Origin: a virus
Taxonomy: Duplodnaviria > Heunggongvirae > Uroviricota > Caudoviricetes
Virus record (IMG/VR): IMGVR_UViG_2563366955_000016
DNA length: 41,253 nt
Reading direction: 5' to 3' (one strand)
The translations under genes and the position numbers were made by a program. Below are positions 29,894 to 32,672 of the stretch, in pieces. Below the pieces are notes generated by a model. The model was given only the letters and a program-made list of their open reading frames with translations. It ran no database searches and had not been told where the DNA came from. Each line of letters opens with the position of its first letter. The first letter of the stretch is position 1.

Positions 29894-30815
29894 AGCCTGC
29901 TTCTCCTTGCCTTTCGGCACGTAAGAGGCTAACCTAGATTTGCCGTTCATAGATTGAGCCTCAGATTAATGTTAAGCGTCTTGCAGGACGCGTAATGTTA
30001 ACTGGGGCTTTTCTCTATCTGCCTTTGGTGTTCATGCCTGAGGCAGATAGCCTCAAGCACCCGCAGCAATTCTACTTAACTCACGTCACCTCGCCAATAT
30101 AAAATCAATCAGAAAGGCGATCCATAAGAACAACAGCAAGGCAATAAATTGCCATTACAGCAGCAATAGCCAGCGCACATTTGAGAACCAGCACCACAAC
30201 CTCCTGTATTGGACGTACACCAGTCCTGATAAATATGAGGCTGTCTCGTCAGTGATTCAATACAACTATTGGGTATAGTTTCTGTGATTTTGTTCTGTAG
30301 AAATGGAACACAACAACCAGTCACCACCAGCACTTCTTTAAATACGCCAAGTCCGACGCAAGCTAACTTTCTAGTCCGCTTTGAGCGAAAAGCAGACTGT
30401 CACGCGTTGAAGTTAATTGTATTACTTAGATAAACACTATCATTTTCCTGACGTTAAGTTGTATCTTTGATAGGATTAAAAAACGTATAGATAGCTTATG
30501 CTACTGAGGGAATAAAAATGACGAAAATTAGTGAACGATGGAAGCACAATGGCATTACTGAAGGTTATTGCAATATTTGTGGGAAATATGGTTTGCTCAC
30601 AAAAGATCATGTTCCTCCAAAGTGCGCCATAACCTTAGGCCCTGTTTTGCAGAAAACAGTTAGCGAATTTTTTGGTATTCAGGAACCAGTTAAACCATTA
30701 AATGCTAAAAATGGCTCTTATTTCAGAACCATTTGCAGCCACTGTAACAATAAGGTATTAGGTGGGCTCGATGTTGCAATTGAAAATGTAACAAAGTCCT
30801 TTAAAGAACAGTTAA

Positions 30816-32010
30816 GGAAGGTGCGAACAAGTCCCTGATATGAGATCATGTTTGTCATCTGGAGCCATGGAACAGGGTTCATCATGAGTCATCAACTTAC
30901 CTTCGCCGACAGTGAATTCAGCAGTAAGCGCCGTCAGACCAGAAAAGAGATTTTCTTGTCCCGCATGGAGCAGATTCTGCCATGGCAAAACATGGTGGAA
31001 GTCATCGAGCCGTTTTACCCCAAGGCTGGTAATGGCCGGCGACCTTATCCGCTGGAAACCATGCTACGCATTCACTGCATGCAGCATTGGTACAACCTGA
31101 GCGATGGCGCGATGGAAGATGCTCTGTACGAAATCGCCTCCATGCGTCTGTTTGCCCGGTTATCCCTGGATAGCGCCTTGCCTGACCGCACCACCATCAT
31201 GAATTTCCGCCACCTGCTGGAGCAGCATCAACTGGCCCGCCAATTGTTCAAGACCATCAATCGCTGGCTGGCCGAAGCAGGCGTCATGATGACTCAAGGC
31301 ACCTTGGTCGATGCCACCATCATTGAGGCACCCAGCTCGACCAAGAACAAAGAGCAGCAACGCGATCCGGAGATGCATCAGACCAAGAAAGGCAATCAGT
31401 GGCACTTTGGCATGAAGGCCCACATTGGTGTCGATGCCAAGAGTGGCCTGACCCACAGCCTGGTCACCACCGCGGCCAACGAGCATGACCTCAATCAGCT
31501 GGGTAATCTGCTGCATGGAGAGGAGCAATTTGTCTCAGCCGATGCCGGCTACCAAGGGGCGCCACAGCGCGAGGAGCTGGCCGAGGTGGATGTGGACTGG
31601 CTGATCGCCGAGCGCCCCGGCAAGGTAAGAACCTTGAAACAGCATCCACGCAAGAACAAAACGGCCATCAACATCGAATCCATGAAAGCCAGCATCCGGG
31701 CCAAGGTGGAGCACCCATTTCGCATCATCAAGCGACAGTTCGGCTTCGTGAAAGCCAGATACAAGGGGTTGCTGAAAAACGATAACCAACTGGCGATGTT
31801 ATTCACGCTGGCCAACCTGTTTCGGGCGGACCAAATGATACGTCAGTGGGAGAGATCTCACTAAAAACTGGGGATAACGCCTTAAATGGCGAAGAAACGG
31901 TCTAAATAGGCTGATTCAAGGCATTTACGGGAGAAAAAATCGGCTCAAACATGAAGAAATGAAATGACTGAGTCAGCCGAGAAGAATTTCCCCGCTTATT
32001 CGCACCTTCC
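30816..32010 (+). mobile_element. IS5 insertion sequence (1195 bp) with 4-bp target site duplication TTAA
   Basis: Terminal inverted repeats GGAAGGTGCGAACAAG (30816) and CTTATTCGCACCTTCC (31995-32010); TTAA at 30812-30815 and 32011-32014. Confidence 0.95.
30848..31864 (+). CDS. insH: IS5 transposase InsH, 338 aa
   Basis: [70 protein letters not shown] matches IS5 InsH. Confidence 0.95.
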
Positions 32011-32672
32011 TTAAGTCGATATATGAATGGTATGAATGTATATCCATTCATTAGAATACCTTTTGATAGCATATCTTTCACTAAGGCTATGATTGGGCAC
32101 GTGCTATCAGCAACTTCAGTTGAAGATTGTAAAAAAGAACCCGTAGATAGCCCCTTCTATACACCTTTAAAGGATTATGTTTTGGGTAAAAATTCAAGTT
32201 TTGAGGAAACTCATGATATTTACTACTGGTTTTACCCACACAGAATGCACATATCCGCTCAAAGTGTAGCATTTATGAACGAAGGACATGTGGCATTTAT
32301 TTGTGCTTTACATTTTTTCCCTATCGGTTTTATTATCACAATGAAAAATGAAGGAACATACCCTGCCCACTCTACAAAATTAGAACTTGAAGATAAATTC
32401 CTTACATTTAATATGACCTCTATAAATTATGAGTATACGACATTTCCATTTGTAAATCTTAAGGGAAACCAAATGTATGCGATAAGCAACGGTCATACTT
32501 GTGTGAGTTATCCAATAATTAAGTGACGGCTAAATCATACAATCTACGCATGTTCACTTTCTACATATACCATCTATAATGTCCGCTGTTGGCACAAAGC
32601 GGACAACCACGCTAGCTCTACCCTGTGCCACAAAATGTCAATTTGCATCTGAACTAATGCACTTTAATCTCG

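Follow-up and report, generated by a model that had tools for sequence, protein, structure and literature searches.

Nucleases of the His-Me finger kind share a pattern in which an Asp-His pair serves as the general base and an Asn as a metal ligand, and McrA is a prophage-borne type IV restriction enzyme of the HNH type. Among mobile modules, integron cassettes use attC sites (R''/R', GTTRRRY) together with IntI, and pdif modules use 28-bp dif-like sites together with XerC/D. Anti-phage genes occur in both variable loci of P2, and the locus between gpA and gpQ is an anti-phage hotspot (Rousset et al. 2022, PMC9122126). The chromosomal integron of Vibrio cholerae carries two HNH-like anti-phage cassettes of one gene each, Sirona and Nemetona, which are distant His-Me nuclease kin ("type II restriction endonuclease domain") found in many Proteobacterial genera (bioRxiv 10.1101/2024.07.02.601686). 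The His-Me classification also lists an uncharacterised bacterial group recognised by HNH_5 only (PMC5714182). Here, we compare these systems with a locus in IMG/VR record IMGVR_UViG_2563366955_000016 (Caudoviricetes; 41,253 nucleotides, hereafter the window), which comprises an entire lambdoid prophage, tail fibres through integrase. Positions 30374–32604 of the window form a discrete, horizontally mobile single-gene cassette that was inactivated by the insertion sequence IS5 after codon 99 of its gene. The intact form of this gene encodes WP_000161640.1, a predicted cytoplasmic two-domain protein of 269 aa. With moderate confidence, we consider this locus to be a mobile cassette with one His-Me nuclease gene, inactivated here by IS5, whose role lies in conflicts between mobile elements.

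The IS5 copy occupies 30816–32010 on the + strand, in the orientation of the interrupted gene, and is complete at exactly 1195 bp. It begins with GGAAGGTGCGAACAAG at 30816 and ends with ...CTTATTCGCACCTTCC at 32010, and the end pair GGAAGGTGCGAACAAG / GGAAGGTGCGAATAAG forms terminal inverted repeats (GGAAGGTGCGAA[C/T]AAG) that match at 15 of 16 positions. Both the length and these 16-bp imperfect repeats are those of IS5. A TTAA duplication, a 4-bp site of the YTAR type, flanks the element on the left (30812–30815) and on the right (32011–32014). The transposase frame is uninterrupted from 30848 to 31864 (338 aa) and yields an intact DDE transposase InsH of 326 aa from the ATG at 30884 (30884–31864, + strand), as in the Prokaryotic Genome Annotation Pipeline annotation of near-identical copies. 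The whole element is 99.6% identical to the IS5 copies in the genomes L091 and L092 discussed below, where RefSeq uses the label "IS5 family transposase". The sequence anatomy thus bears out the claim, made in an earlier note on this DNA, of a complete 1195-bp IS5 with a TTAA duplication inside a + strand open reading frame (ORF).

In its present state, the interrupted ORF (30518–30838, + strand) encodes 106 aa, namely 99 native residues followed by RKVRTSP, and stops 23 nt inside IS5. The native 5' part covers codons 1–99 and the first base of codon 100 (30518–30815), with the left TTAA supplying codon L99 and the first base of S100. The 3' part (32015–32526) continues in frame from the rest of codon 100 to K269 and the stop codon at 32524–32526. 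Joined, the two parts give 810 nt and 269 aa with no internal stop, and a GC content of 35% against 51% in the window. The earlier note had stated that removing IS5 and one TTAA copy restores the frame, which is correct; the junction that it wrote out (30518–30811 with 32015–32526) is 806 nt long and out of frame because both TTAA copies were dropped. The 269-aa product that it described stands: the restored ORF is 100.0% identical over all 810 nt to the annotated intact coding sequence of WP_000161640.1, as carried by 13 or more complete E. coli genomes, and it is therefore not a chance ORF. In strain 165, where the intact gene lies at 2027621–2028430 of NZ_CP020509.1, a 3.8-kb stretch including the gene and its flanks is identical to the window minus IS5. 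S. sonnei plasmid p59 is another source of the intact cassette. Since IS5 parts the nuclease motif (residues 1–99 plus seven IS-encoded residues) from the C-terminal domain (fragment 103–269), the allele in the window is almost certainly non-functional. The disruption event itself is a routine one.

Uninterrupted copies, which the earlier note had proposed looking for in related prophages and whose complete absence it had named as counting against its reading, are abundant in E. coli genomes, plasmids and viral contigs. Of 5426 complete E. coli genomes, 141 carry the gene, 136 of them at full length. It is also carried by 60 plasmids (44 conjugative) of E. coli, Shigella and Klebsiella, most of which encode a protein of 100% identity, and by 51 IMG/VR viral contigs. 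Between alleles of 92%–95% nucleotide identity (unsaturated pairs), the ratio of nonsynonymous to synonymous substitution rates was 0.13–0.18, showing that the gene is a maintained coding sequence under purifying selection.

The exact interrupted allele of the window was not found among complete E. coli genomes, and the three best-covered matches represented other events. In EFF60 (L092), IS5 lies instead at a CTAA that precedes the ATG by 152 bp (equivalent to window positions 30363–30366), and in PigCaeca_2 (L091) at a CTAA 4 nt past the stop codon (equivalent to 32530–32533). In plasmid p1 of strain 162.2 (L004), ISKpn26 lies at a TTAA 102 bp upstream (30413–30416), and the ORF carries a 1-bp indel. 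Including the window, four independent insertions of the IS5 family (IS5 or ISKpn26) were thus found in or beside a cassette of ca. 1 kb, all in the same orientation. IS5 prefers YTAR sites in AT-rich DNA; TTAA occurs 10.7 times per kb in the cassette and 3.9 times per kb in the window, which fits this preference. The clustering is a target effect and not a sign of selection against the gene, most of whose alleles are intact.

The first homologue search returned 93 proteins, all of ca. 270 aa. An exhaustive profile search extended the family to 1785 clusters at 50% identity (E ≤ 1e-3), with 812 at E ≤ 1e-10 and 348 at E ≤ 1e-30. Nearly all clusters were 260–290 aa long and matched end to end, indicating a fixed two-domain architecture, and the longer members carried no extra Pfam domain. 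In alignments reaching down to ca. 22% identity, the invariant or near-invariant residues were C18, C21, D30, H31, P33, P34, C73, C76, N77, D85, G127, H128, W171, P202 and P244. The N-terminal pattern, CxxC ... DH ... N-G ... CxxCN ... LG..D, is of the His-Me finger kind represented by endonuclease VII, Hpy99I and the HNH domain of Cas9, and its residues (C18, C21, D30-H31, N65, C73, C76, N77 and D85) are all encoded within 30518–30815. The general-base His in D30-H31 and the metal-binding Asn, N77, on the following helix are both invariant. The earlier note had named alignments lacking the HNH catalytic residues as an outcome that would count against a nuclease; the alignments instead showed these residues to be conserved throughout the family.

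At the profile level, 16 of 63 distant members matched Pfam HNH_5 (PF14279) at E < 0.01 (best E = 2.3e-6), and one matched Endonuclease_7. Relatives scanned individually scored 17–18.5 bits against HNH_5, and in individual members the match was split, with profile positions 1–23 and 24–53 flanking an insertion of ca. 35 residues. Searched against the PDB, the N-domain profile had its best match in the restriction endonuclease Hpy99I, at the CxxCN..LG..D segment, with a non-significant E value of 2.6. The whole-protein profile produced only a spurious match at E = 0.87. An AlphaFold (AF2) model was confident (predicted local distance difference test score 93; predicted template modelling score 0.92), and its secondary structure places the DH at the end of a strand and N77 and D85 on the next long helix. 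These results suggest that membership in the His-Me superfamily is likely, an assignment based on motif conservation and on sub-threshold or transitive HNH_5 matches, not on a significant match of the window protein itself or on structural superposition. The N-terminal HNH-like motif that had been read from the restored protein is upheld on the same grounds, with its HNH-type catalytic and zinc residues invariant across the family.

In the mechanism that we propose, the N-terminal domain would be a His-Me/HNH nuclease with a beta-beta-alpha-metal fold stabilised by zinc, of the type seen in endonuclease VII, Hpy99I or HNH_5. The pairs C18-x2-C21 and C73-x2-C76 would hold a structural zinc, D30-H31 would act as the general base, and N77 with D85 would bind the catalytic metal, with an insertion of ca. 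35 residues separating the two strands of the motif. The two CxxC pairs, the DH dipeptide and the CxxCN...G...D helix motif are shared with endonuclease VII, Hpy99I and HNH_5. The family differs from them in the insertion of ca. 35 residues between the DH strand and the N/CxxCN strand, in an obligate C-terminal domain of ca. 165 aa with no detectable fold relative, and in having no methyltransferase partner. We consider it quite probable that the intact protein is an active nuclease. Alternatively, the four cysteines and the DH could be structural or regulatory parts of a zinc-binding protein that is not a nuclease. This alternative would agree with the source annotations ("metal-binding protein" or "chaperonin"), with the lack of a significant Pfam match and with the fact that no structural match to HNH enzymes was found. 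However, D30, H31, N77 and D85 are invariant as well as the cysteines, even at distances of 25% identity, which is the pattern expected of a catalytic site. Relatives also reach HNH_5, and no match to Cpn10, Cpn60 or another chaperone was found in Pfam or NCBIfam; a zinc protein without nuclease activity is thus improbable. Database names for the family are "hypothetical", "metal-binding protein" and, in many NCBI records, "chaperonin". The last of these looks like a propagated misannotation, as searches of Pfam, NCBIfam and the PDB gave no Cpn60, Cpn10 or other chaperone match.

The earlier note had also described the AT-rich C-terminal domain as uncharacterised, and this description holds. 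The domain is encoded within 32015–32526, with G127-H128, W171, P202 and P244 as its invariant residues. Despite the confident model, it had no Pfam match and no fold match among the solved structures of the PDB or the viral structures of BFVD. A domain profile search for the C-terminal domain recovered the same architecture only. This alpha/beta domain of ca. 165 residues, seen only fused to the nuclease, might supply target recognition or control of activation. McrA offers a partial parallel, as both proteins combine an HNH nuclease with a second domain, lack a methyltransferase and travel as prophage cargo. The domain order is reversed, however, with the HNH domain N-terminal here. An McrA-like type IV reader was also considered, and neither fold nor sequence searches matched the C-terminal domain to SRA, EVE, YTH or other modified-base readers.

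In the lambdoid prophages of E. coli, the gene lies between hokD/sok and DUF977 with the replication genes, and it is oriented opposite to the phage early operon. In the window, hokD/sok and a lipoprotein gene (lipobox LGGC) lie directly to its left, in agreement with the cargo position beside hok and the lipoprotein assigned to it previously. In the same prophages, the gene adjoins the nin-type genes DUF968 and RusA. This position raises another possibility, namely a structure-specific DNA-processing nuclease, such as a resolvase like endonuclease VII or NinG or a repair enzyme, that aids the replication or recombination of its carrier. The CxxCN..G..D signature resembles that of endonuclease VII and Hpy99I, and the single Endonuclease_7 match among the relatives points the same way. 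Nevertheless, the gene belongs to an AT-rich foreign cassette transcribed against the early operon, only a minority of such prophages have it, and others have QueH in its place. The same prophages already encode RusA, and the gene is also found on plasmids and among the tail genes of P2-like phages. A processing role for the carrier is therefore a slim prospect compared with a role in mobile-element conflict.

In the P2-like phage pro147 and two viral contigs (L118 and L120), the tail sheath and tail-fibre assembly genes flank a 94% allele, at the position of Z/fun in P2. In two further viral contigs that were checked directly (L145 and L146), relatives of ca. 36% identity lie just past the terminase-portal genes. 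The gene order in L146 is terminase, portal (gpQ), HNH-family gene, an unknown ORF and a gpA-like replication nickase, and the sizes of the upstream neighbours in L147 and L148 match those in L145 and L146. The family thus occupies the two variable loci of P2-like phages, and experiments have validated one of them as a defence hotspot. It resembles the single-gene anti-phage morons of P2-like phages (old, tin, fun and the DUF4238 system; PMC9122126) in its loci, stand-alone nature, low GC content and patchy occurrence, and differs from them in having no sequence relation (the PADLOC search was empty). The hotspot location strengthens the idea, put forward with caution in the earlier note, that the intact gene may encode a defence or exclusion nuclease.

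Members from Vibrio suggested a further parallel. They are > 90% identical across at least six named Vibrio species and lie on contigs of ca. 1 kb. In the Vibrio-type member L085, a 30-nt direct repeat at 1–30 and 1116–1145, 1115 bp apart, brackets the gene, and the contigs break there. This arrangement suggests an integron-type cassette array. The likeness to Sirona and Nemetona, with which the family was compared by description only, lies in the small single-gene cassette and in the cassette-borne appearance of the Vibrio members. The Vibrio members of the family are rare, however, each occurring on 16 contigs at most, and no member bears an N16961/VCA label. Identity with Sirona or Nemetona is therefore unlikely.

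The boundaries of the cassette were defined by comparing the window with its other carriers. Homology to the plasmid, Kluyvera and Erwinia copies starts at 30374–30378, and homology to the P2-like, plasmid, Kluyvera and Erwinia copies ends at 32596–32613; the P2-like copy has only the right end in common with the window cassette. Without IS5, the cassette is ca. 1.03 kb long (window 30374–32604), and its boundaries are identical in six contexts. Each boundary coincides with a 24-bp imperfect palindrome of 9-6-9 structure. The left one, type A (30374–30397), reads GTCCGCTTT GAGCGA AAAGCAGAC, and the right one, type B (32581–32604), reads GTCCGCTGT TGGCAC AAAGCGGAC. The two are similar and differ in their spacers, GAGCGA and TGGCAC. 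Both are exact pattern matches in the window, where 0.32 matches would be expected by chance. Between site A and the ORF lies a cassette-borne upstream region (30398–30517, + strand) with a ribosome-binding site, GAGGGA, ca. 7 nt before the ATG; it is conserved alongside the ORF in all contexts. A scan for consensus promoters found no + strand site within 30398–30517, and scanning the cassette for consensus promoters and terminators gave no informative result.

The plasmids provided evidence for the activity of these sites. Written as pairs of half-sites, the layout is a.c–hyp475–e.f–int200–b.d–HNH–g.h in plasmid L002, a.d–HNH–g.h in plasmid L093, and a.d–HNH–g.f–int–b.c–hyp–e.h in plasmids L094 and L004. 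Sites of the 9-6-9 pattern lie at 3111, 5173, 5857, 6865 and 10538 in L002, and at 4857, 5865, 6549 and 8611 in L094; for a further sequence, L006, the span is 2414–12252. Modules and flanks are 100% identical among the configurations (2038/2038, 660/660, 984/984, 1000/1000 and 200/200), which differ only in module order and in reciprocal half-site exchange exactly at the 6-bp spacers. Such swaps are the signature of conservative site-specific recombination and establish A and B as real site-specific recombination sites. As read from the configurations, the order of events would be the excision of a [hyp-int] circle by A × A recombination, followed by its reintegration by B × B recombination. 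The intermediate that this model predicted (L093) and the donor B site e.f (L002, 5173–5196) were then found. These before-and-after configurations document cassette shuffling with two spacer-specific sites. In the window, A and B delimit the cassette as heterospecific substrates of the same type of recombination.

The 200-aa protein encoded in the [hyp-int] circle (WP_001752951.1) is a tyrosine recombinase consisting of the catalytic domain only (Pfam Phage_integrase). In Erwinia aeris, an 87% homologue of this recombinase adjoins an array of modules bounded by A and B sites, with GNAT acetyltransferases, a Tlde1-domain protein, the HNH gene, an unknown gene and DJ-1/PfpI as cargo. In Marinobacter litoralis (L066, 455–1255 and 1581–2192), a 61% homologue lies ca. 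330 bp downstream of a 29%-identical member of the HNH family, and no A or B site of the enterobacterial consensus was detected at this locus. The recombinase gene is absent from the window. Given its company on plasmids and in Erwinia, the 200-aa tyrosine recombinase is likely the enzyme that acts on A and B.

This system shares several properties with integron cassettes and pdif modules, namely promoter-poor single-gene modules, short bounding sites, arrays adjoining a tyrosine recombinase gene and shuffling between plasmids and chromosomes. GNAT and DJ-1 are also typical integron cargo. In contrast, the sites are 24-bp 9-6-9 palindromes with two types of spacer, neither attC nor 28-bp dif-like, and the recombinase is a catalytic-domain-only enzyme of 200 aa and not IntI or XerC/D. 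A classical attC reading of the cassette ends was rejected because they have no GTTRRRY core and span just 24 bp; the combination of attC and an IntI-type integrase that marks an integron gene cassette is thus lacking. No description of a 24-bp two-spacer site system was found.

The cassette nature of the locus also bears on a selfish or addictive role, in which the nuclease would serve the cassette-recombinase system or its carrier as a homing-type endonuclease or a post-segregational killing factor. An N-terminal nuclease followed by a putative C-terminal DNA-binding domain is the layout of free-standing homing endonucleases. Moreover, the cassette retains 92%–100% nucleotide identity across very different replicons and genera and is recurrently found beside small site-specific recombinases. 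Homing, however, requires homologous flanks, and the flanks here are unrelated (the lambdoid nin region, two P2 loci, plasmids and a chromosomal array), with boundaries that fall on recombinase sites and not on a cleaved target. A free-standing homing endonuclease would be expected at one conserved target locus, whereas the same cassette occurs here in unrelated surroundings. As for addiction, no antidote or immunity gene is conserved alongside. A selfish nuclease of this kind is accordingly unlikely, although we rate it slightly above the zinc-protein and DNA-processing alternatives.

Two related lambdoid prophages with the same hokD and DUF977 flanks, L101 and L102, carry QueH (epoxyqueuosine reductase) in place of the HNH cassette, at 2858–3523 in each. 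The segment replaced corresponds to window positions 30128–32576, with homology breaking at 30127 and 32577. The backbone of the QueH prophages retains only the right arm of B (AAAGCGGAC). A simple exchange of cassettes at A and B is not supported for this replacement, since neither site is complete in the QueH prophages and the homology breaks at the positions given above. Also missing from the QueH-type prophages is a segment of 246 bp that separates hokD/sok from site A in the window. Within it lies an ORF for a product of 74 aa (30109–30333, – strand) that is unusually rich in cysteine (…CAGYCCCNGNLLPCCCSYGSPF).

To place the family beyond E. coli, the gene neighbourhoods were compared in 80 species genomes from Gamma- and Betaproteobacteria, cyanobacteria, Nitrospirota, Planctomycetota, Bacteroidota, Firmicutes and bacteria of the candidate phyla radiation. 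No neighbour or partner gene was conserved across these genomes. The immediate neighbours include integrases, resolvases, IS200, Mrr_cat, AbiTii and nSTAND3, and PADLOC matches among them include RmrA, PD-T4-2_B, HerA and others. In E. coli, a paralogue of 56% identity (P0279) lies one small ORF away from a SMODS gene, a nucleotidyltransferase of the type found in cyclic-oligonucleotide-based anti-phage signalling systems, on an island with IS21 (L095, 5948–6724 and 8001–8804). A Citrobacter paralogue (P0280) adjoins a canonical Pfam HNH gene (L098, 6913–7650).

Several observations weigh against the interpretation as a mobile His-Me nuclease of inter-element conflict. The window protein itself scored only 11.6 bits against HNH_5 (E = 0.29, residues 18–35), below the gathering threshold of 27.5. 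Searches of PADLOC, NCBIfam and PDB sequences with the protein were empty, with no match in PADLOC-DB v2.0.0 at E ≤ 10, and no functional study was found in the literature for the accession, its PHROG or HNH_5. Housekeeping genes account for many of the neighbours in the 80 genomes, and the listing of defence genes was made without an enrichment control. The plasmid copies sit amid resistance and transporter genes. The GNAT, DJ-1 and Tlde1 cargo in Erwinia indicates that the cassette system is not defence-specific. Finally, a simple empty site was not seen outside A and B in the prophage.

On the other side, the lack of a conserved partner or immunity gene, the purifying selection, and carriage in moron and hotspot positions, on plasmids and in arrays together make a stand-alone conflict nuclease the most likely role. 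The intact protein could act in phage exclusion or defence, either in a manner dependent on DNA modification or when triggered by infection. The chance that it serves to exclude phages or other mobile DNA, or to defend against them, is close to even. Should it prove to be a defence nuclease, it would be a single-gene system not known before, possibly with a recognition domain that is new as well.

The restored gene thus reveals a compact 269-aa protein family that is large, conserved and under selection. The only library match of the protein was PHROG 21495, "unknown function"; the family is named in no curated library searched, and neither the family nor its bounding recombination sites have yet been described. 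Tentatively, WP_000161640.1 could be the founder of an undescribed family of single-protein anti-phage or anti-plasmid systems, composed of a His-Me nuclease and a sensor or recognition domain of orphan fold. Under this proposal, which we hold with less than even confidence, it would travel in an undescribed integron-like system that relies on a minimal tyrosine recombinase of 200 aa and on 24-bp sites of two heterospecific kinds, shuffling cargo between the prophages, conjugative plasmids and chromosomal arrays of Enterobacterales. The shuffling of cassettes bears on the transfer of cargo between phages and plasmids, including genes located beside resistance genes on IncF plasmids.

Elsewhere in the window, Rfam identified the sok antitoxin RNA, the DicF small RNA and the IS009 RNA, and ARAGORN identified four clustered prophage tRNA genes for Gly, Thr, Lys and a tRNA with a CAT anticodon (RefSeq: Ile). 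The coordinates listed for these Rfam and ARAGORN features are 29888–30062 (– strand), 36828–36879 (+ strand), 44–242 (– strand) and 26014–26323 (– strand).

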